The translations under genes and the position numbers were made by a program. From Candidatus Harpocratesius repetitus (lineage in GTDB: Archaea; Asgardarchaeota; Lokiarchaeia; Sigyniarchaeales; Promethearchaeaceae): a stretch of 32,000 nucleotides of DNA. Location: the NCBI GenBank assembly GCA_021498095.1, contig JAIZWK010000001.1:2310001-2342000 (forward strand). Reading direction: 5' to 3'. Under the pieces are notes generated by a model, which saw only the letters and a list, made by a program, of their open reading frames with translations, had not been told where the DNA came from and did not search any database. Below are positions 1,344 to 12,038 of this stretch, piece by piece (within the stretch, counting starts at the first letter, position 1; the number at the start of each line of letters is the position of its first letter).

Positions 1344-2096
1344 CTATTCTTTTGAAAGGACAACTTCTTGCTTTAAAAGTTTCTCCTTAATCGGATCCCA
1401 GAAAATCTGATTGTAGGGTCCGCTGGTATTGATTTTTGTCCACCAAACCTTGAAATTATCTTGAGGACAAACATTCATACACGCGGCACATTTAATGCAT
1501 TTTTCATCATCAATTTCAATATGAATCTTTGATTCCCATGCTGGTTCCATTTCTTTAAAAGTAATGGCTTCCGTAGGGCATATTTGCTCGCATTTATGAC
1601 AATCACCAGGGCATTTATTCATGTAATATTTAATAAACTCATCTTTGTCATCTGGTATTTCATAAGTTACCTCGATTTTTCCTTCCCAGTAAATATTGGC
1701 ATCTCGTCCTAATTTAGAGCAAGGTACTTTTTGAATTTCCAATTTCGGAATTGAATTATGCTCAATAAGTTTAAGTGTTTCGGTAGGAACCAATTCACCA
1801 TCTTCATACAATTGAATAGCATCAAACGGGCAAAAAATTTGACACGTTCCGCACATAACACATAAATCAGGATCTACTGTATCTACTACAGAAGCATTCA
1901 GATCTTTGGGTTTCGATTCATAAACAGCAGCTGCTGGGCCAAATAAAATAGCATCTTTTGGACAGACAATTGAACATTGCCCACACCCAGTACATTTCAT
2001 TCGATCAAGAATCAAATCATATTGTTTTACTAGGTATTTATGGGTGATTTTGATTTCAGTATCATCTATTTTTTTTAATCGTTTAGGAAAGGCCAT
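1344..2096 (-). CDS. Polyferredoxin, 4x[4Fe-4S], FwdF/MvhB-like
   Basis: Four cluster motifs: CTGCGQCSIVCP, CVMCGTCQIFCP, CPGDCHKCEQICP, CIKCAACMNVCP. The C-terminal KINTSGPYNQIFW segment resembles FwdF termini. GAGG SD upstream. Confidence 0.88.
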   Translation of the reverse strand: MAFPKRLKKIDDTEIKITHKYLVKQYDLILDRMKCTGCGQCSIVCPKDAILFGPAAAVYESKPKDLNASVVDTVDPDLCVMCGTCQIFCPFDAIQLYEDGELVPTETLKLIEHNSIPKLEIQKVPCSKLGRDANIYWEGKIEVTYEIPDDKDEFIKYYMNKCPGDCHKCEQICPTEAITFKEMEPAWESKIHIEIDDEKCIKCAACMNVCPQDNFKVWWTKINTSGPYNQIFWDPIKEKLLKQEVVLSKE

Positions 2097-2187
2097 ATTG
2101 TTATCCTCGAATTTTTAAAGATAAAATTATGATTAAGAGATATTTATTTATAAAGTTGGGGAATAAAAAAGGGTAATGGTATATCCT

Positions 2188-2238
2188 TAGTTAGTTGGTT
2201 TAGTTGGTTAATTCGTTGGTTAATTCGTCGGTTGGTTA
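2188..2238. repeat. Imperfect short tandem repeat (AACCAAC-core units, x4) spanning the hdrB stop codon
   Basis: Minus strand reads TTAACCAACCGACGAA TTAACCAACGAA TTAACCAACTA AACCAACTAA. Confidence 0.7.
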
Positions 2239-4181
2239 AGTGCTGATAGATCCAGATCTCGCTCTAAATGAGTAAAAATTGGATCAACTGGAGTAAAGGG
2301 AGGTACTCCTTTTCGCTTTGGATATCTGAGAATACCGAGTGAAAATGGATCAATTCCCATCGCTAATCCCAAAAGTTGGGTTATATAGAGCACAGGAATG
2401 GAAAATGGTGCAGAAATCTGATCTTTATAGATACTATTAATTTCCATTTGTCCTAAATCGAATTGTAAATGACAGAATGGGCAGCAATCCACAATAATAT
2501 CTACTCCTGCTTTTCGCATCGATTCCAATTTGTCTCGAGTAAAGTCTAAAGAGACTTCTTTTTCAGAACCACGCAAGCCTCCACCTGCGCCACAACACAT
2601 TAACTTGTCTCTATAATCCACAGAAGTACAACCTGTCAACTCAACTAGTTCATCTAAGAAAGTTGGTGTTTCAAAATCATCTTTCCATGGCTTATTATGA
2701 GTTGGTTTCAAAATGTGGCATCCATAATGTACTGCGACTTTAAGTCCCAGATTTCGAGTTATCATTTTTTTAATTTTTTCAATACCTACATCATTATATA
2801 AAATCCAAACCAAGTGCTCGGCATCGACAATACCTTTAAATTCTTTTCCTATTTCTTTCAATTTGCTATTTACGAAATCTCGTTTTTCAGAATTGTGCTT
2901 TAATTCAGTGTTAACATCATTTAATGTGCCGTAACAACCATTACACATAATACAAAGATTTCGCTTAATATCTTCAGCAATCGTTATATTTCTTGCGCCT
3001 AATGTAAGCCATGTATCAATATCAAATGAACGGAATACTCCTGGTGCAGGGCAGCACCCTGCTCCTTCTAACTCGACAACCCCAACTTTTAATGCATTTA
3101 ATACGCTACGAGTAGCCGCATCAATGAAAGGGTAGCGATTAGGAATAACACATCCAAGGTACATTGCTACATTTACACCTTCTGGGTTCTCTTTTAGCAT
3201 ATTGTTTAAATTATTTTTTAACCATTCCGCTCCATGGGTTGTATAATTTTGTAATTGTTTTTTCCAAGGCCATAAGGTTGGATCTAATTTACGAACTTCA
3301 TCAAAGGCTTTCTTTGCTTCTTCCAGTTGATCTTGAGTCCAGTAAAGAATGGCTAAGTTTAACCAAGTTATGGAATTTACCTTTTTTGAATTTGATTCAG
3401 TATAATCAATAATTTTCTTAAGAGCAACTTCTGCATATGATATTTCTCCTAATCGAAATTGTGCTAAGGCGATATTATTCCATAAGGCTTGGAAATTGAT
3501 AAAATTGATTGGATCAAAAACAGGATGATCTTCAAGTAAGGTGAATTCATTAAGAGCATTTTGATATAAACCTTTCTGTGCTTCTATTGTACCTAAAAAG
3601 AAAGATATATATGCCCAGATTTTTGATTTGGAATATAATTTGTTATTCTTATTTTTTATTTCTTTTCCAACATTCTTTTTTATTCCATCTTTTTTATTCT
3701 TCACGTTTGTTTCTTGTTTTAAAATTTCCTTTGCTTCGTTTAGAAATTTTTCTGCGTAGTATATTTCATGGCGTTTAAAATGCAGAAATCCTAAATAGAA
3801 GAGAATTTCGGGAGATCCTGGAGAAAATTTATTCGCACTGGTGAGATAAAATAGTGCTTTTTCAAAACCATTACACATCAGATGGACTTTTGCTAATCCT
3901 ATTAAAGCTTCGATGTTTTTTCCATCTAACTTAAGTGCTTCATAATAATGATTATTGGCATCACGGTAATTCTCCAATATAAGAGCCAAATATCCCCTCT
4001 TCAAATATCCAAGAATATTGGTAGGATCTTTCTCAATCATCTTCTCAAAATAATAGCGCGCTTCGAGATATTTTTTCTGCTCAATATAGAGATCTCCAAG
4101 TTCGGAAAGATCTTCAATTGATTCTGCATATCTTCGAAGATGAAGGATTTTTTTATCTACTTCTTCCATAATAATTCTCAC
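2220..4181 (-). CDS. hdrB: Tetratricopeptide-repeat protein fused to heterodisulfide reductase subunit B
   Basis: N-terminal ~330 aa contain about 7 TPR-like repeats (e.g. LSELGDLYIEQKKYLEARYYFEKMIEKDPTN). C-terminal ~320 aa are a complete HdrB with two CCG domains (YLGCVIP, CCPAPG, CNGC, HYGCH, CCGAGGG, CCPFC). The start may be ATG at 4169. Confidence 0.92.
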   Translation of the reverse strand: MRIIMEEVDKKILHLRRYAESIEDLSELGDLYIEQKKYLEARYYFEKMIEKDPTNILGYLKRGYLALILENYRDANNHYYEALKLDGKNIEALIGLAKVHLMCNGFEKALFYLTSANKFSPGSPEILFYLGFLHFKRHEIYYAEKFLNEAKEILKQETNVKNKKDGIKKNVGKEIKNKNNKLYSKSKIWAYISFFLGTIEAQKGLYQNALNEFTLLEDHPVFDPINFINFQALWNNIALAQFRLGEISYAEVALKKIIDYTESNSKKVNSITWLNLAILYWTQDQLEEAKKAFDEVRKLDPTLWPWKKQLQNYTTHGAEWLKNNLNNMLKENPEGVNVAMYLGCVIPNRYPFIDAATRSVLNALKVGVVELEGAGCCPAPGVFRSFDIDTWLTLGARNITIAEDIKRNLCIMCNGCYGTLNDVNTELKHNSEKRDFVNSKLKEIGKEFKGIVDAEHLVWILYNDVGIEKIKKMITRNLGLKVAVHYGCHILKPTHNKPWKDDFETPTFLDELVELTGCTSVDYRDKLMCCGAGGGLRGSEKEVSLDFTRDKLESMRKAGVDIIVDCCPFCHLQFDLGQMEINSIYKDQISAPFSIPVLYITQLLGLAMGIDPFSLGILRYPKRKGVPPFTPVDPIFTHLERDLDLSALNQPTN

Positions 4182-4277
4182 TAATTACGAAAAACAATAA
4201 GTTAATTTTCGTAGGATAATATTCATCTGGCGCTAATCACTATTTAAGATTTTTTTTATTGGATTATGGAATTTTGA

Positions 4278-4297
4278 GTGAAATTCGTGTGAAATTC
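4278..4297. promoter_or_regulatory. GTGAAATTC direct repeat (11-bp period) in the hdrB/hdrC divergent intergenic region
   Basis: Copies at 4278-4286 and 4289-4297. The repeat is seen directly; a regulatory role is inferred from position only. Confidence 0.25.
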
Positions 4298-4602
4298 TAA
4301 AATGCTGAATGTAGCTTTTTTTTAGGAAGATTTTGATCACTTTTCGAAAGAGAATTTAACAATTCAAGTAAAAATAAATGAATTATTCAGATAATCGTAC
4401 TTTTCTTGGAGTTAGCGAATGAACCTCAAATTAAGTTATGTTTTTCACCAAATCCAATAAATGAAGCTTTTTAAACATTCATTTTAACACTACACCATCA
4501 AATACCCATTTTAATTTCATGTTGCCTATTTGCATGGATTTAAAATAAAAACACCATTTTCATGATTTCTTGTGGTATGAATAAGGTGTTTTTCTCACTC
4601 TC

Positions 4603-5496
4603 ATGAGGGAAATAAATATGGAAAAAATCCAACGGAACATTATTGTTCACATTTCGGATATTATCAGCGAAGAAATAATAAAAGACGAGGCAATGGCTTT
4701 TGTCAGGGCATGTTTTCAATGTGGGACTTGCTCTGGAGGCTGTCCATCTGGACGTAGAACTGCAATTCGTACTCGTCAAATTATTCGTCGGGTAATTTTA
4801 GGATTGGAAGAAGTGCTTTCTTCTGATGATATCTGGCTCTGCAGTACGTGTTATACATGTTTTGAAAGATGTCCAAGAAGTATACCTGTTACTGACATAA
4901 TTATCAAATTGCGAAATTTAGCCACTCAACGAGGATATATGAAACCCCCACATAAAGCAGTTACTCATATTTTAGCTGATACAGGCCATGGTGTTCCGTT
5001 GGGAACGCAAAAAGGTGGTGAACCGAATAATTGGAGTCAATTACGGGCATCATATGGCTTACCGGACATTCCTCCAACAACACACAGTCACCCAGAAGCT
5101 GTTAAAGATATTCAGATATTGATGCACGCTACGAATTTTGATAAATTGGTTGATTGGAAACCAAAAAATACCGAACTGAAGCCAAAGGTTAATGAGAAAA
5201 GTGAAGAAAAAAGTGAGGGAAAAAATGAGGGAGAAAGTAAGGTAAAAAGAAAAGCAAAATCAAAATCAAAATCCCAATCAAAAGTCAAAGAAGAACTTAA
5301 ACCTAAAAAAGAAGTAGAAATCAAAAAAGAACTTGAGATCAAAACAGATTCCCAAACCAAAACCGAATCCAATATCAAATCTGAATCTGAAACAAAGAAA
5401 ACAAGCACAAATAAAAAAACTGTGACAAAAAAGAAAAAGGGTTTAAAGAAAAAATTAAAAAAAACCCGAATTTCCAATAAAAACAAAAAAAAGTAA
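4603..5496 (+). CDS. hdrC: Heterodisulfide reductase subunit C with a 112-aa Lys-rich C-terminal extension
   Basis: CFQCGTCSGGCP and WLCSTCYTCFERCPR motifs, followed by DIIIKLRNLA and TGHGVP typical of HdrC. The start may be ATG at 4618 after GAGG. Confidence 0.92.
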   Translation: MREINMEKIQRNIIVHISDIISEEIIKDEAMAFVRACFQCGTCSGGCPSGRRTAIRTRQIIRRVILGLEEVLSSDDIWLCSTCYTCFERCPRSIPVTDIIIKLRNLATQRGYMKPPHKAVTHILADTGHGVPLGTQKGGEPNNWSQLRASYGLPDIPPTTHSHPEAVKDIQILMHATNFDKLVDWKPKNTELKPKVNEKSEEKSEGKNEGESKVKRKAKSKSKSQSKVKEELKPKKEVEIKKELEIKTDSQTKTESNIKSESETKKTSTNKKTVTKKKKGLKKKLKKTRISNKNKKK

Positions 5497-5686: not shown

Positions 5687-7702
5687 ATGAGTAAATCTAA
5701 AATAAATATAATTTCCCCTTCTAATAATTCAGAAAGCACCGAAATTCGCATTGGTGTTTATCTCTGCCATTGTGGGGTTAATATAGGCGGTGTTATCAAC
5801 ATGGATGAAATGGTTAAATTTGCTCAGAAACTTCCAAATGTTGTAATAGCACGCCAGTATAAATTCTACTGTTCTGATAACGGACAAGCTGAAATTGCTC
5901 GCGATATTCGTGATGGATTAGTTAATCGCGTTGTGGTTGCTGCTTGTAGTCCCCGCATGCATGAAAGTACTTTTCGGCGCGTTTTAGTTGATGAGGGTTT
6001 AAACCCATTTTATTTTGTCCAAGCAAATATTCGAGAACATGCCACTTGGGTAAATATGAATGATCCTGCTGGTGCCCAACGAATTGCCCAAGATCATGTT
6101 CGTATGCAAGTGGCAAAAGCAAGAGAGCTCCGCGCCTTGAAACCACAAAAAGTCATGGTAAAGCCATCTGCTTTAATTATCGGCGCAGGTATTGCTGGAA
6201 TTAATACTGCGTTAGATTTGGCAAATCAAGGTTTTCATGTATATTTAGTTGAAAAAGAACCGACTATTGGGGGTCATATGGCACAATTGGATAAAACTTT
6301 TCCCACAATGGACTGTTCTTCATGTATTCTTACTCCAAAAATGGTCGAAATTTCACGTAATCCTAACATAACAGTTATGGCTTATTCAGAAATAGAACAT
6401 GTAGATGGATATGTTGGAAATTTTCAAGTGCAAATTCGAAAGAAGGCTCATTATGTGGATCAACTGAAATGCACAGGCTGTGGGGAATGTGCCCAACATT
6501 GCCCTGTTTCTGTTGGAAATGAATTTGATTTGGGACTCAGTCATAGAAAAGCCATTTATATTCCATTTCCTCAAGCTGTTCCCGGATTGTATACTATTGA
6601 TATGGAGCATTGCATAAAATGTGGCATTTGTGCATCTACCACCGTTTGTGAACCTCAAGCCATAAATTTTGATGATCAAGATGAAATTGATACAATTGAA
6701 GTCGGAACCATTATTGTGGCTACCGGATATGATCCAATCGATGTATCTAATCTTGGAAATTATGGATATGGTCGATTTGAAAATGTGATTACAGGGCTTG
6801 AAATGGAAAGGAATCTTAGCAGTACAGGTCCTAATCTGGGTCATCCTGTGCGTCCTTCAGATGGAACTTCCCCCAAGTCGATTGTATGGATTCAATGTGT
6901 TGGAAGTCGGGATACTAGAGAAGGTTATCATCCATACTGTAGCCGAGTTTGTTGCATGTATGCGATTAAACAAGCCCGGCAGTATAAGGAAAAACATCCT
7001 GAAGCTCAATGTTATATATTCTATATAGATATTCGCGCATTCGGTAAGGGCTATGAAGAATTTTATGAATTAGCCAGTCATGAATATGGTATCAAATTTA
7101 TGCGGGGTCGTTTAGCAGAAATTCAAGAAAATCCTGATAAATCGCTGTTAATTCGCGCTGAAGATACATTTCTTGCTCAACCAATTGAAATTAATGTAGA
7201 CATGGTTGTTCTTTCAATAGGTTTGGAAACTACTCATGATTCTGGTAAAATCGCTTCTATGCTGGCAATTCAAAAATCCACTGATGGTTTCTTCATGGAA
7301 GCTCATCCCAAACTTCGTCCAGTTGATTCTCTTACGGATGGAATATTTATTGCTGGAGTTGCTCAAGGACCAAAAGATATTCCAGATGCTGTTTCTCAAG
7401 CAAAAGGTGCTGCTGCGGGTGCTGCTATCTTAATGGCAAAAGGGGAGGTGGAAGTGGAGCCATATTTTTCAATTGTACAACCTGCTCTCTGTTCTGGTTG
7501 TAGATCTTGTATTAATCAATGTCCATTTGGAGCAATTACATTTGATGAAATCTTGCAAATTGCTCATATAAATCCAATTAAATGCAAAGGATGCGGAACT
7601 TGCGCATCTACTTGTCCATCGAATGCAATTCTTCAAAATCATTTTACAACAAAACAATTAATGGCTATTATTGATGGTGTTTTAGGAGATTATCAAGTAT
7701 GA
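5687..7702 (+). CDS. hdrA: Heterodisulfide reductase subunit A (flavin-based electron-bifurcating subunit), Cys form
   Basis: RIGVYLCHCG N-terminus, GAGIAG FAD motif, LDKTFPTMDCSSC, inserted ferredoxin (CTGCGECAQHCP, CIKCGIC), QCVGSRD...CSRVCCMY, and a C-terminal ferredoxin (CSGCRSCINQCP, CKGCGTCASTCP). Confidence 0.97.
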   Translation: MSKSKINIISPSNNSESTEIRIGVYLCHCGVNIGGVINMDEMVKFAQKLPNVVIARQYKFYCSDNGQAEIARDIRDGLVNRVVVAACSPRMHESTFRRVLVDEGLNPFYFVQANIREHATWVNMNDPAGAQRIAQDHVRMQVAKARELRALKPQKVMVKPSALIIGAGIAGINTALDLANQGFHVYLVEKEPTIGGHMAQLDKTFPTMDCSSCILTPKMVEISRNPNITVMAYSEIEHVDGYVGNFQVQIRKKAHYVDQLKCTGCGECAQHCPVSVGNEFDLGLSHRKAIYIPFPQAVPGLYTIDMEHCIKCGICASTTVCEPQAINFDDQDEIDTIEVGTIIVATGYDPIDVSNLGNYGYGRFENVITGLEMERNLSSTGPNLGHPVRPSDGTSPKSIVWIQCVGSRDTREGYHPYCSRVCCMYAIKQARQYKEKHPEAQCYIFYIDIRAFGKGYEEFYELASHEYGIKFMRGRLAEIQENPDKSLLIRAEDTFLAQPIEINVDMVVLSIGLETTHDSGKIASMLAIQKSTDGFFMEAHPKLRPVDSLTDGIFIAGVAQGPKDIPDAVSQAKGAAAGAAILMAKGEVEVEPYFSIVQPALCSGCRSCINQCPFGAITFDEILQIAHINPIKCKGCGTCASTCPSNAILQNHFTTKQLMAIIDGVLGDYQV

Positions 7703-8166
7703 TAAAATCAAAAATTGAAGACAATCCTTCTTCCGAAGTGATTGATAAAGATTTTGAACCATTCATATTGGGAATATTCTGTAATTGGTGTACCTATACT
7801 GGATGCGATCAAGCAGGTACTTCGAGAATGCAACGCCCTGCAAATTTGCGCGTTATGCGTGTTATGTGTAGTGGCCGTGTTGAACCAGAAATGGTTATTG
7901 AAGCTTTAAAACGTGGGGCAGATGGTGTTCTTATTGGTGCTTGTCATATCGGGGACTGTCACTATGTAAATGGAAACCACAAGACAGTTCGGCGTATGCC
8001 GGTTTTAGTAAACCTTATTGAACAATATGGTTTTAATCCTAATCGTGTGTGGTTAAGACATATATCAGCATCAGAAGGTGCGGAATTAACTGAAATTGTT
8101 AAAGAATATGTGAAAATACTAAAAGAATTAGGCCCCAATCCGTTGAAAAATCAAAAATCAAGATAA
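7699..8166 (+). CDS. mvhD: MvhD/FlpD [2Fe-2S] subunit (hydrogenase delta), Cys form
   Basis: FCNWCTY...RVMCSGRV...GADGVLIGACHIGDCHYVNGN. ATGA overlap with the hdrA stop indicates translational coupling. Confidence 0.95.
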   Translation: MIKSKIEDNPSSEVIDKDFEPFILGIFCNWCTYTGCDQAGTSRMQRPANLRVMRVMCSGRVEPEMVIEALKRGADGVLIGACHIGDCHYVNGNHKTVRRMPVLVNLIEQYGFNPNRVWLRHISASEGAELTEIVKEYVKILKELGPNPLKNQKSR

Positions 8167-8428: not shown

Positions 8429-9514
8429 TTGAGGTGTCGAAAAATAACCGCAGAATCAAAATCGAATAATTTATCTTCGAAATTTTTTCATACTCGGGAA
8501 TTTTTTCCCATTGAAGTAAATTTTGGCGATAAAGAAATTATCAAAATAACCAAGCGCCCGCGCAAGACTACTACTGAAATTGTTGATATTTATGCAAACG
8601 GCTATCATATTGGCATGTTTGTAGGAATTGAACGGGTGGGAAATGAATTAAAATTCGGACCAACAGGATTAAATAAATCTCATATATATCGAAATATTCT
8701 CGATTATGTATTTGTTCGTTTACTAGAATATTTTGGATTGACTGGTGTGGCTCAAATTAGTATTGATGTTCCCGAAGATACTGAATTCAAGTCTTTTCTG
8801 CTGCAATTAGGATTTATTCCTAAAGATAATCAACTTATACTGGAATTGACTGAAGAAAATTTAAAAAAATTGATGAATTCTCTCGAAAAACATCCTTTTG
8901 AAATAAAATCTCAAGTTGGGCAATTCCAAAATGTAATTTCTTTTAATCTTGATGATCCTGATGAAAAAACTGTATTAAAAATGGTTGATCATATTGTAGA
9001 GAAAATTAAAAACATGGATCCTATCGGGAAAGAATTCTGGGATAACAGAAAAGTTATGCAGTTAAATTATTATTTAACTATGGCAGTATTAAATAGAAAT
9101 CAAATCATTCCCGATGAATTTCTGGAAACAAGCTTGAAAACTATTATTGCATCACTTGATACGTTTAACCGAGAAGCCTATTTGGAAGAAATATTTGTCG
9201 CTTTAGATGGTGGTAAAGCATTTGGTATGGATTATATTCAGAATATTCTTACTAAATTGCAAGAATTAGTTCCTGAAGAAATAAAAGTATTGAATAAGGA
9301 TCATCTACGTGATTGGGTCCAAAAAAACATGCCTGCTTGGATTTTAAGTGATGAAATTGAAAATAAAGCACGTGAAGAATTAAAAGCTAAATCTCGCTTG
9401 AAGTTGGAAGATTTCGGCACATCGATAAAAGATAGCATGAAAGATGTTATAACTGCCCTAATCGATCATTATAATGGAGAAAGAATCTTCTTTGGAATGA
9501 ATAATCGATTATAA
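8429..9514 (+). CDS. Hypothetical protein; N-terminal half resembles a degenerate GNAT fold, C-terminal half helical
   Basis: 361-aa ORF. HIYRNILDYVFVRLLEYFGLTGVAQISIDVPEDTEFKSFLLQLGF follows the GNAT motif A-helix/beta5/'FY.KLGF' pattern but lacks the R/QxxGxG/A loop. Confidence 0.6.
   Translation: MRCRKITAESKSNNLSSKFFHTREFFPIEVNFGDKEIIKITKRPRKTTTEIVDIYANGYHIGMFVGIERVGNELKFGPTGLNKSHIYRNILDYVFVRLLEYFGLTGVAQISIDVPEDTEFKSFLLQLGFIPKDNQLILELTEENLKKLMNSLEKHPFEIKSQVGQFQNVISFNLDDPDEKTVLKMVDHIVEKIKNMDPIGKEFWDNRKVMQLNYYLTMAVLNRNQIIPDEFLETSLKTIIASLDTFNREAYLEEIFVALDGGKAFGMDYIQNILTKLQELVPEEIKVLNKDHLRDWVQKNMPAWILSDEIENKAREELKAKSRLKLEDFGTSIKDSMKDVITALIDHYNGERIFFGMNNRL
8431..8436 (+). promoter_or_regulatory. 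Shine-Dalgarno GAGGTG
   Basis: Matches the archaeal anti-SD. It lies 7 nt upstream of an in-frame ATA at 8444 and overlaps the TTG chosen by the ORF track. Confidence 0.5.
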
Positions 9515-9554: not shown

Positions 9555-11453
9555 TTGGTGAAAATTATGGTAGAAGGATATACTCAAACTTGTGTACGCA
9601 TCAATTTAACCACGGGTGAAATTAAAAAAGAAACCTTAAGCCAAGATTTTTGCAAGCAGTACATTGGTGGCTATGGTTTTGTTACAAAAATATTATGGGA
9701 TGAATGTCCGAAAGGTGCAGATGCATTTGACCCCCGAAATCCATTTGTAATGGCAATTGGACCGTTTCCAGGAACAATTGTACCCACTTCATCCAAATAC
9801 TGTGTAGGTGCAAAATCTCCTTTAACAAGACGAATTGGATTTGCGATCAGTTCTGGATCATGTGGTGCGCAAATGCGAAGGGCAGGAATTGATTTGATTA
9901 TTCTTACTGGCAAAGCTCCTGAACCTGTCTTCATTTTCTTCGATGATGATGCTATTAACATCATACCGTGTAAGGATACCCTTTGGGGAAAAGATATCTG
10001 GACCGTTGAAGAAGAAATTCGCAATATGTATGGTGATCATCGTATTTCTGTTATGGGTATTGGTCAAGCAGGAGAAAATTTAGCAAAACTAGCTTGCATT
10101 ACTAATGATAGAGCTCGACAAGCAGGACGAACAGGATTGGGTGCAGTAATGGGCTCAAAAAATGTTAAAGCAATGGCTTTTCGAGGAACTAAATCCATTA
10201 AAGTGGCAAAACCGAAAGAATTTATGGAAAAAGCAAAAGAATTAATTCAATTAGCAAATGGAAAAGATACTTTAAAATACCGTGATTTAGGCACACCAAT
10301 AAATGTAATGAAATTTAACGATCTCGGTGTTTTACCAGTAAAAAACTTCCAAACAGGTTATTGGGATAAAGCTGATGCAATTTCTGGAGAAACTATGGAT
10401 GAAAAATGGGTTGTAAAAAAGACTGGATGCAGTCAATGCCCAATTGCTTGTGATCATTTATGTGCTACCAAACCAGATGATCCAGATTATCCAAACGTCG
10501 TTTCAAGTGTAGATTATGAAAGTATTTATGCCCTCGGTTCTGTTTGTTTAATCGATCATTTTCCAGCTATAATTAAAATGGTTGAAATGTGCGATAAGTA
10601 CGGAATTGATACCATGACCGGTGGTACCACTTTGGGATTTGCTATTGAAGCTTATGAAAAGGGATATATAACCAAAGAAATGCTCGGAGATAATCCTGTT
10701 TATAAAAATGGTCTTCAATGGGGAGATTATAAGGCAGTTGTTCAACTTATTGAAGATATATGCTTTCGATCAACTCCAGCTGGAGATCTTTTAGCTGATG
10801 GTTCACGTGATGCAGCTAAAAAGTTGGGAGGAGACGCTTGGAAATTCTCGTGTGAAATTAAAGGAATGGGTATTCCGGGCTATGAATTAAAAGGATTAAC
10901 TACTGCATCTATTGGGTTTGCTGTCTCACTGAGAGGTGCATGCCATCTTCGAAACGGGTCATATGGTTATGATATGAAAAAGAAATTCGATCGGAAAAAA
11001 TACGATGAACTTGACAAACGGGGTCAAGCTTTAGCTGGACAAGATGCCTTTATGGCGATTATTGATTCATTAGTTGTGTGTAAATTTACGCGAGGAATAT
11101 ATCACCGTGGTTTACCAGAAATTGCAGAAGTATATGAAATGGTAACTGGTATTCCCATGACTGGTGAAGAAATCGAACTTGCAGGCCATAGAATTCATGA
11201 TTTGGCAAAATGTTTCAATATTCGAGAATGTCAAGTAGAAGGAGTTGAACCTATGAGTGAAGATTCACTTCCATGGCGAAATTTCCATGAACCTAATCTC
11301 GATGGACCTACAAAAGGATGGTACAATGATGAAAAAGGATTCTGGGAAGGAATCAAGCAATATTATCTTGCCCGTGGATGGGATGAACGTGGTTATCCGA
11401 AAGAAGAAACCCTCAAAACTCGAGGCTTAGATTTTGTAATAGGAAAAATTTAG
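9555..11453 (+). CDS. aor: Tungsten-type aldehyde:ferredoxin oxidoreductase (AOR/WOR family)
   Basis: GAKSPLT, GRTGLGAVMGSKNVKA, GCSQCPIAC, DKYGIDT, KGMGIPGYE, RGACHLR, DSLVVCKF, YYLARGWDERGYPKEETL. The start is probably ATG at 9567 after GGTGA. Confidence 0.95.
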   Translation: MVKIMVEGYTQTCVRINLTTGEIKKETLSQDFCKQYIGGYGFVTKILWDECPKGADAFDPRNPFVMAIGPFPGTIVPTSSKYCVGAKSPLTRRIGFAISSGSCGAQMRRAGIDLIILTGKAPEPVFIFFDDDAINIIPCKDTLWGKDIWTVEEEIRNMYGDHRISVMGIGQAGENLAKLACITNDRARQAGRTGLGAVMGSKNVKAMAFRGTKSIKVAKPKEFMEKAKELIQLANGKDTLKYRDLGTPINVMKFNDLGVLPVKNFQTGYWDKADAISGETMDEKWVVKKTGCSQCPIACDHLCATKPDDPDYPNVVSSVDYESIYALGSVCLIDHFPAIIKMVEMCDKYGIDTMTGGTTLGFAIEAYEKGYITKEMLGDNPVYKNGLQWGDYKAVVQLIEDICFRSTPAGDLLADGSRDAAKKLGGDAWKFSCEIKGMGIPGYELKGLTTASIGFAVSLRGACHLRNGSYGYDMKKKFDRKKYDELDKRGQALAGQDAFMAIIDSLVVCKFTRGIYHRGLPEIAEVYEMVTGIPMTGEEIELAGHRIHDLAKCFNIRECQVEGVEPMSEDSLPWRNFHEPNLDGPTKGWYNDEKGFWEGIKQYYLARGWDERGYPKEETLKTRGLDFVIGKI

Positions 11454-12038
11454 GTGATGATTATGTCAATGAAAGCAAATAATACGCCCAAAACAGAAAA
11501 AAATTCAAGCATTGATACTTCTGCAATTATGCATAAAATTCTTGTTGTGGATCCTGCCCGTTGTACAGGATGCGAAATTTGTGAGTCCGTATGTGGAATG
11601 GTTCACGACGATGTTTTTAATCCAATGAATTCTCGCATCCATCGAGTCCGCATTGAACCTGTAATCAATTCCAGCATAAGCTGCGTTTCATGTTATGATC
11701 CTGATTGTGTAAAAGCTTGTCCTCTTAGTGCTATCACAAAAAATCTTGAAACAGGAATTTTAGAAGTAGATCAGAATAAATGCGATGGTTGCGGAGCTTG
11801 CATGAGAGCATGCTCTTTTGGAGCGATCACTGTGCATACGAAAAACAAAAAGGCGATCATGTGCGATATGTGTTCAAGCACGATTTATGGGGAACCTCAA
11901 TGTGTGGAATATTGTCCTAAAGGTGCGATTTTTATTGAGGAAATTGATCCGAATGTTAATGAAGATCGTTTAGAGACTTTACGAAAGATTCTTGAACGCG
12001 GTTTTCCGCAACCACCTGAAGGGGAAATTTTAAATTAA
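11454..12038 (+). CDS. 4x[4Fe-4S] electron-transfer protein (DmsB/CooF/AorA-like), probable AOR small subunit
   Basis: CTGCEICESVC, CVSCYDPDCVKACP, CDGCGACMRACSFG, CDMC...PQCVEYCP. It directly abuts the aor stop. Confidence 0.9.
   Translation: MMIMSMKANNTPKTEKNSSIDTSAIMHKILVVDPARCTGCEICESVCGMVHDDVFNPMNSRIHRVRIEPVINSSISCVSCYDPDCVKACPLSAITKNLETGILEVDQNKCDGCGACMRACSFGAITVHTKNKKAIMCDMCSSTIYGEPQCVEYCPKGAIFIEEIDPNVNEDRLETLRKILERGFPQPPEGEILN

Follow-up and report, generated by a model that had tools for sequence, protein, structure and literature searches.

Catalytic subunits built from CCG domains also serve organisms that do not produce methane. DsrK, which works with DsrC, and the sHdr system, which works with a lipoate-binding protein, act on protein substrates; the carrier protein is encoded nearby and neither system includes tetratricopeptide repeats (TPR). 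In methanogens, the subunit HdrB of heterodisulfide reductase (Hdr) is part of the HdrABC-MvhAGD, Fdh-Hdr-Fmd and Elp-Hdr complexes (PDB 5ODC, 7BKB, 8RVU). Published metabolic models of Asgard archaea give HdrABC-type complexes a central place, as in the H2-evolving syntrophy proposed for Promethearchaeum syntrophicum MK-D1 (PMC7015854). Papers on this strain and its relatives, among them Imachi et al. 2020 and a 2025 preprint, call the enzyme HdrABC without further qualification. Here, we report an hdrB gene, TPR-hdrB, whose product joins an N-terminal TPR array to HdrB. The gene lies in a stretch of 32,000 nucleotides from Candidatus Harpocratesius repetitus (GenBank assembly GCA_021498095.1, contig JAIZWK010000001.1, positions 2,310,001 to 2,342,000 of the forward strand), hereafter the window, to which all plain coordinates refer. 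In TPR-HdrB, a known enzyme subunit takes on a new architecture, one that is conserved and specific to its lineage. Literature searches that paired the enzyme or its HdrB subunit with TPR turned up no description of such a fusion, and the first-pass annotation of this DNA, made from the sequence letters, had likewise known of no characterised example.

The gene and the parts of its product are arranged as follows.

2220..4181, minus strand: TPR-hdrB coding sequence; stop codon at 2220-2222, start at GTG 4181 (653 residues) or ATG 4169 (649 residues)

3273..4118, minus strand: TPR array, residues 22-303, 34-residue hairpins starting at residues 22, 56, 90, 124, 190, 231 and 270

3624..3728, minus strand: Lys/Asn-rich insert, residues 152-186, between hairpins 4 and 5; predicted local distance difference test score (pLDDT) 52-67

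3174..3272, minus strand: TPR-HdrB linker, residues 304-336, with a W304-P305-W306 motif and two short helices

2331..3173, minus strand: HdrB catalytic domain (two CCG domains), residues 337-617, by TIGR03288 and structure match

2223..2330, minus strand: Pro-rich C-terminal tail, residues 618-653, KGVPPFTPVDPIF...

The first-pass annotation had read this gene as one uninterrupted frame of 653 residues in which about seven TPR, split by a Lys/Asn-rich stretch, run into an intact HdrB with all CCG cysteines, and it had taken the host for a probable non-methanogen. Closer analysis bore this out: the frame is open throughout on the minus strand from the GTG at 4181, the AlphaFold2 (AF2) model has seven hairpins where Pfam places its TPR matches, the Lys/Asn-rich stretch corresponds to a loop of low model confidence, all ten cysteines are present with a TIGR03288 score above the cutoff, and neither McrA nor ComA was found in the single-contig genome.

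Judged by sequence and predicted fold, TPR-HdrB is an HdrB save for the stand-alone size of about 300 residues, being 649-653 residues long. Pfam recognises two CCG domains (PF02754) at residues ~340-575 with an E-value of 4e-34, and residues 338-617 reach 392.5 bits with TIGR03288, the NCBIfam equivalog model for HdrB, whose cutoff is 345.15. Each CCG domain has the five-cysteine motif Cx31-39CCx35-36CxxC, formed by C344, C376, C377, C413 and C416 in the first and by C488, C529, C530, C567 and C570 in the second, and all ten are invariant or at least 90% conserved among 43 fused homologues. The two domains would bind two noncubane [4Fe-4S] clusters. In phmmer searches against solved chains the HdrB half matched 8rvv_B with an E-value of 1.6e-98 and 5odc_B with 4.7e-97, and Foldseek superposed the same half of the AF2 model on 8RVU_B and 5ODC_B with template modelling (TM) scores of 0.91-0.93 and root mean square deviations of 1.8-1.9 Å. 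The domain is 48-54% identical to methanogen HdrB in sequence; by structure alignment, identity is 44-51% and the TM score 0.88-0.93. The likeness extends to gene company, as TPR-hdrB is also encoded with hdrC, hdrA, mvhD and polyferredoxin genes. TPR-HdrB differs from the methanogen subunit in the 336 residues of N-terminal TPR array and linker, in the Pro-rich C-terminal tail, and in a host in which McrA and ComA were not detected and the only [NiFe] hydrogenase gene stands beside an unfused hdrB. HdrD, a fusion of HdrC and HdrB, carries an N-terminal ferredoxin-like domain with two [4Fe-4S] clusters before its CCG domains, which TPR-HdrB does not have: in the N-terminal half, TPR models are the only Pfam matches and Fer4 is not among them.

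The closest relatives without TPR are the stand-alone HdrB proteins of Asgard archaea (about 317 residues; Hermod-, Thor-, Hod-, Hel- and other Promethearchaeota), which are 55-63% identical, end in the same KGVPPF tail and are sister to the fused clade; in the families neighbouring that of the window, stand-alone HdrB has about 320 residues and 53-61% identity. Their genes lie inside the hdr operon, whereas the fused hdrB is divergent from it, together with polyferredoxin. A single alignment column is diagnostic between fused and unfused Asgard HdrB domains, F636, which is F in 98% of the fused and L in 90% of the unfused proteins. The ratio of nonsynonymous to synonymous substitution rates (omega) of the HdrB domain is 0.03 against a relative that is 93% identical. 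The catalytic domain is essentially that of unfused Asgard HdrB, almost unchanged. The Pro-rich tail, modelled as coil and yet with a pLDDT of 85-93, is common to unfused Asgard HdrB too. It was considered as a fusion-specific intramolecular ligand for the TPR groove and rejected, since the unfused proteins have the same tail and F636 alone is specific to the fused ones.

TPR-hdrB is a genuine gene, and misassembly is ruled out by the single-contig genome (4.36 Mb) together with contigs that bridge the fusion, including one from a second study. Over 2100-4700 the window is matched without a single difference by a Logan contig of 16 kb that probably comes from the source sample, and in a second run of this sample a contig of 275 bp spans the TPR/HdrB junction at 3007-3281. 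In the other study, a relative about 92% identical has a contig of 9.1 kb that covers 2235-4700 without a break. The start codon is likely the ATG at 4169, giving 649 residues, because the closest relative, P0002 from a Candidatus Harpocratesius sp. (93% identical), begins MEEVD and more distant orthologues align from residue 5, as seen in P0002 itself and in loci L021, L027 and L028.

About 50 fused TPR and CCG homologues of 580-667 residues are on record from many assemblies, which excludes a fusion peculiar to this one, the outcome that the first-pass annotation had named as counting against itself. Two fused copies each are found in MK-D1 and in Ca. Lokiarchaeum ossiferum, whose genomes (4,324,194 bp and 6,035,313 bp) belong to the family of the window. 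The distribution was surveyed in 400 Asgard genomes, counted as species representatives, among which related genomes are not independent samples. Of the 13 other genomes in the family, 11 have frames of more than 550 residues that match from about residue 185 onward, often in two copies. A query with P0046:1-345, the TPR and junction from the fused clade that has diverged most, matches nine of these 13 genomes, always in frames of 441-658 residues (589-658 in 11 of 12, the frame of 441 residues lying near the start of contig G135:C143), and none of the 387 genomes in the other 32 Asgard families. The TPR-hdrB fusion is restricted to the family of Promethearchaeum, Lokiarchaeum and Harpocratesius.

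In a tree of 95 HdrB domains, obtained by a quick maximum-likelihood search, a single branch with a Shimodaira-Hasegawa-like approximate likelihood ratio (SH-aLRT) support of 91 separates the 43 fused proteins from the others, and the fused label needs one change. The fused proteins split into at least four paralogous clades, and their sisters are unfused HdrBs named Lokiarchaeota, Helarchaeota, Thor-, Hermod- and Hodarchaeota. The simplest history appears to be one fusion in the ancestor of the family, followed by duplications. The source genome itself has five hdrB genes, of which one is fused.

The N-terminal half is a TPR array by several measures. Pfam models TPR_1, TPR_2, TPR_19 and related ones (PF00515, PF07719, PF14559) match residues 24-305 with E-values from 6.6e-19 to 1e-14, and the AF2 model shows a cap helix and seven helical hairpins, the TPR helices having a pLDDT above 90. 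Foldseek matches the array to CTPR8 (TMt 0.69-0.77) and to the TPR superhelix of O-GlcNAc transferase (1W3B), with which it shares the same run of 34-residue helix-turn-helix units; unlike these scaffolds, it is joined to a redox subunit with Fe-S clusters. The TPR consensus is made up of small or hydrophobic residues at positions 8, 20, 27 and 32 of the repeat, and nearly all strongly conserved residues of the array are at consensus positions; conserved positions are G63, A41, A75, A82, A116, A209, P53 and P305. In the linker, W304 is conserved at 81% and P305 at 95%, L321 is conserved as well, and helices are modelled at residues 307-316 and 318-326. The whole-protein model has a mean pLDDT of 90.9 and a predicted TM score (pTM) of 0.88, and this whole-chain value implies that the TPR and HdrB halves would keep a fixed relative orientation. 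Wider searches were uninformative: the best 150 matches of a TPR-only profile against 1.84 billion representatives were all giant multi-TPR proteins, which tells nothing of the donor or of other fusions, and when the whole protein was put to the feature search of the ESM Atlas, nothing but generic TPR clusters of bacteria came back, at 0.87.

Against the relative that is 93% identical, omega is 0.08 in repeats 1-4 and 0.14 in repeats 5-7, by which the TPR is functional DNA under purifying selection. The array nevertheless diverges much faster than the enzyme, identity between genera being 16-51% for the TPR versus 54-86% for HdrB. The Lys/Asn-rich insert has an omega of 0.44, indicating relaxed constraint, and is confined to the genus Harpocratesius; other homologues align at five of its 35 residues. 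In the same comparison (2223-4181 against L034:6001-7938) synonymous divergence (dS) is uneven, 0.26 in the TPR half and 0.61 in the HdrB half, which could come from recombination, codon constraints or small counts.

Conservation along the groove is not uniform. With a generic TPR register from the literature, assigned on the sequence, groove-side positions are conserved above outer ones in repeats 5-7 only (F194, Y195, N235, N236, R243, N275, W281), and in repeats 1-4 they do no better than outer positions. Carboxylate-clamp TPR proteins such as Hop, CHIP and PP5, which bind an EEVD tail, have a clamp of Lys/Asn/Asn/Lys/Arg on the A helices, spread over three repeats in a row. Of such residues N236, R243 and N275 are conserved in TPR-HdrB, with Asn at consensus position 6, but in this generic register the full pattern of TPR that bind Hsp70 and Hsp90 was not recognised. 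The likely N-terminus of the protein, MEEVDKK (4155-4169), begins with the five letters, MEEVD, that end Hsp90 and are bound there by TPR co-chaperones. This is treated as coincidence, the motif being at the wrong end of the protein and not conserved in homologues.

The surroundings of TPR-hdrB are conserved as well. Orthologous loci in four genera have the divergent layout of the window, hdrC-hdrA-mvhD-orf-aor-FeS on one side and TPR-hdrB-polyferredoxin on the other. The genes concerned are these.

1344..2096, minus strand: polyferredoxin of 250 residues with four Cys motifs for [4Fe-4S] clusters; Pfam Fer4, best NCBIfam match FwdF-like

4182..4602, no strand: divergent intergenic region between TPR-hdrB and hdrC; layout conserved in four genera

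4603..5496, plus strand: hdrC, core residues 1-185 and Lys-rich tail 186-297; TIGR03290, 186 bits against a cutoff of 160

5687..7702, plus strand: hdrA (HdrA2-like), flavin and Fe-S subunit; NF040770, 875 bits, below the cutoff of 1100; Pfam Pyr_redox_2 and Fer4

7699..8166, plus strand: mvhD; PF02662 FlpD, E-value 1e-45

8429..9514, plus strand: conserved open reading frame (ORF) of 361 residues between mvhD and aor; syntenic in four genera

9555..11453, plus strand: aldehyde:ferredoxin oxidoreductase (AOR), tungsten-type; AFOR_N and AFOR_C; syntenic with the Hdr genes

11454..12038, plus strand: Fe-S subunit of the AOR; Fer4_11; syntenic with the Hdr genes

On its own strand, TPR-hdrB is followed by the polyferredoxin gene and then by an aldo/keto reductase gene. 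Polyferredoxin is directly downstream of TPR-hdrB in the window and in L021, L022, L023, L027, L028, L031, L032 and L034. A complex prediction of the TPR domain with this polyferredoxin scored 0.00 against a mark of 0.32; it gives no verdict and counts for neither side. The intergenic region presumably holds both putative promoters. In the contig of the relative about 92% identical, 86 other letters replace 41 bases between the polyferredoxin and hdrB genes (2193-2235), and 10 bases are inserted in the divergent intergenic region (at 4311). The HdrC tail (5158-5496), which spans about 112 residues and has a high share of Lys, Glu and Ser, is limited to the genus Harpocratesius (HdrC of 274-320 residues in L027, L028 and L034); HdrC of MK-D1 and L. 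ossiferum has 190-200 residues and no such tail. This tail and the Lys/Asn-rich insert were each rejected as a conserved partner of the TPR, both being confined to that genus.

The 361-residue ORF belongs to no Pfam or NCBIfam family. It has full-length orthologues in 11 of the 13 family genomes, and weak partial matches only (residues 202-305) in the neighbouring family; the two genomes without it, G131 and G132, are also without a clade-A fused hdrB. Its AF2 model is poor (pLDDT 59.9). The ORF is a candidate extra subunit. AOR and its Fe-S subunit keep their synteny with hdrC-hdrA-mvhD across genera, and an aldehyde-linked Hdr module is conceivable. The sole [NiFe] hydrogenase large subunit of the genome (C1:1498620) adjoins a different, unfused hdrB.

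Paralogous loci vary in their arrangement. In L022 a split hdrA is divergent from TPR-hdrB-polyferredoxin-hdrC, in L031 hdrA-hdrC is divergent from TPR-hdrB-polyferredoxin, and in L032 TPR-hdrB-polyferredoxin is on its own. L029 has a solitary fused copy 4 kb from an mvhG-hdrC-hdrB-mvhA cluster. The family member G132 also has an unfused operon, hdrC-hdrB-hdrA-mvhD-polyferredoxin (L026), which is the probable ancestral arrangement; as it includes polyferredoxin, the association with that gene is older than the TPR. Within this operon (L026:8746-10389, G132:C11), hdrC (209 residues) and the unfused hdrB (337 residues) stand end to end in the same frame with one stop between them; the genome search gave an open frame of 552 residues there, at odds with that stop.

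Taken together, these observations suggest a docking scaffold on a conventional HdrB. TPR-hdrB would encode the disulfide-reducing subunit of an HdrA-HdrC-MvhD-polyferredoxin electron-transfer module in Lokiarchaeia. A seven-repeat TPR superhelix would have joined the N-terminus of HdrB once, in the ancestor of the Promethearchaeum/Lokiarchaeum/Harpocratesius family, and the fusion would have been retained through several later duplications. Electrons may be expected to arrive at the two noncubane clusters via HdrC, as in the solved Hdr complexes, and the chemistry would be that of unfused Asgard HdrB, the reduction of a low-molecular-weight disulfide, with the TPR as an added protein-docking scaffold. 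Repeats 5-7, at the C-terminal end of the array, probably lie fixed against the body of HdrB together with the WPW linker, and the fast-evolving N-terminal repeats 1-4 are probably free to extend towards a partner and hold it. The partner may belong to the complex as a further module, or it may be a lineage-specific protein.

That the HdrB of the Lokiarchaeial Hdr module acquired its TPR superhelix once and uses it for docking is, as a whole, a reading that we consider evenly poised between right and wrong. Its descriptive part, a real fusion of single apparent origin, restricted to one family, with a conserved locus, a selected TPR and an essentially unchanged catalytic domain, is nearly certain; the docking mechanism is tentative and falls somewhat short of that even balance. 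Several points weigh against it. No partner of the TPR has been identified, the substrate is unassigned, with no ComA, McrA or DsrC found, and the packing of the TPR on HdrB is read from pTM and conservation alone. The groove positions come from a generic register assigned on the sequence, the tree from a quick search in which the fused clade, at 91, was not starred. Some fused paralogues, such as the L029 copy, are without an hdr neighbour, so that not every fused copy need act in the same complex.

Another explanation, which the first-pass annotation had offered beside docking of HdrABC onto a partner complex, is that the TPR groove recruits the substrate, binding a protein or peptide with a disulfide or persulfide and presenting it to the noncubane clusters. 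The Asgard 'heterodisulfide' would then be borne by a protein, comparable to DsrC for DsrK or the lipoate-binding protein for sHdr. To our knowledge, no heterodisulfide is known from Asgard archaea. McrA (PF02249) and ComA (PF02679) were not found in the single-contig genome (93.6% complete), in which ComDE and CoB synthesis were not searched; this supports a host that is not a methanogen, as judged from gene content, and makes CoM-S-S-CoB, the heterodisulfide of coenzymes M and B, unlikely as the substrate. TPR arrays typically bind extended peptides, and the conserved groove positions of repeats 5-7 could serve such binding. Further, an unfused MK-D1 cluster, polyferredoxin-mvhD-hdrA-hdrB-hdrC (DSAG12_01134-01141), is followed directly by TusA/SirA, TusD and DsrE/DsrF-like sulfur-carrier genes in the supplementary table of PMC7015854, and this adjacency, in the entries for that cluster, hints that some Asgard Hdr paralogues may act on protein persulfides. 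However, the single diagnostic column relative to the unfused sisters and the 48-54% identity to methanogen enzymes with a small-molecule substrate give no sign of a remodelled pocket, and the groove positions of repeats 1-4 are not conserved. In contrast to the DsrK and sHdr systems, no DsrC was found in the source genome, and no gene for a Cys-bearing carrier is conserved in synteny beside the fused gene; the 361-residue ORF has a single Cys, at residue 3, present in three of five orthologues. Recruitment of a protein substrate by the TPR is unlikely, and it is quite unlikely that the TPR itself picks out a thiol, disulfide or persulfide on a protein and passes it on to the clusters.

Alternatively, the TPR may be a structural add-on with no external ligand, which stabilises HdrB, shields or gates the entrance to the active site, or drives self-association of Hdr into larger assemblies. 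A rigid two-domain body, as suggested by the pTM of 0.88, the conserved WPW linker, the location of the fused-specific F636 in the tail and the fast drift of most TPR surface positions would all be in keeping with this, and an expansion of repeat domains is described as common in Asgard genomes in bioRxiv 10.1101/2020.10.19.343400. Yet omega is 0.08 in repeats 1-4, which by chain position are farthest from HdrB, and this argues for a constraint beyond mere folding; about 290 residues have also been retained in every paralogue through several duplications. We regard a purely structural role as improbable. An artefact is very hard to sustain, whether it be sought in faulty assembly, in an overlooked stop or frameshift, or in an internal start at M340 that would give two proteins out of one frame. 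This in-frame Met does stand directly ahead of the first HdrB strand, but its column holds L or F in the other proteins, fused and unfused alike, making it a hydrophobic core position and no conserved start. More than 40 homologues, taken from many assemblies that include closed genomes of cultured strains, have the frame open, contigs span the junction and the linker is conserved.

For cultured Lokiarchaeia, these results mean that the main hdrB beside hdrA, hdrC and mvhD is not a plain one but carries a selected, predicted protein-binding scaffold of about 330 residues. TPR-HdrB thereby bears on an open question, the acceptor of the high-potential branch of Hdr in Asgard archaea. The isolated TPR domain is a possible bait in culturable organisms, either for a partner module such as AOR or the 361-residue ORF or for a protein substrate. 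Should the TPR be only structural, it would be a lineage-specific decoration of modest interest. Were the protein-substrate explanation to hold, the electron acceptor that has long been missing for Hdr in these cultured relatives of eukaryotes would prove to be a protein.

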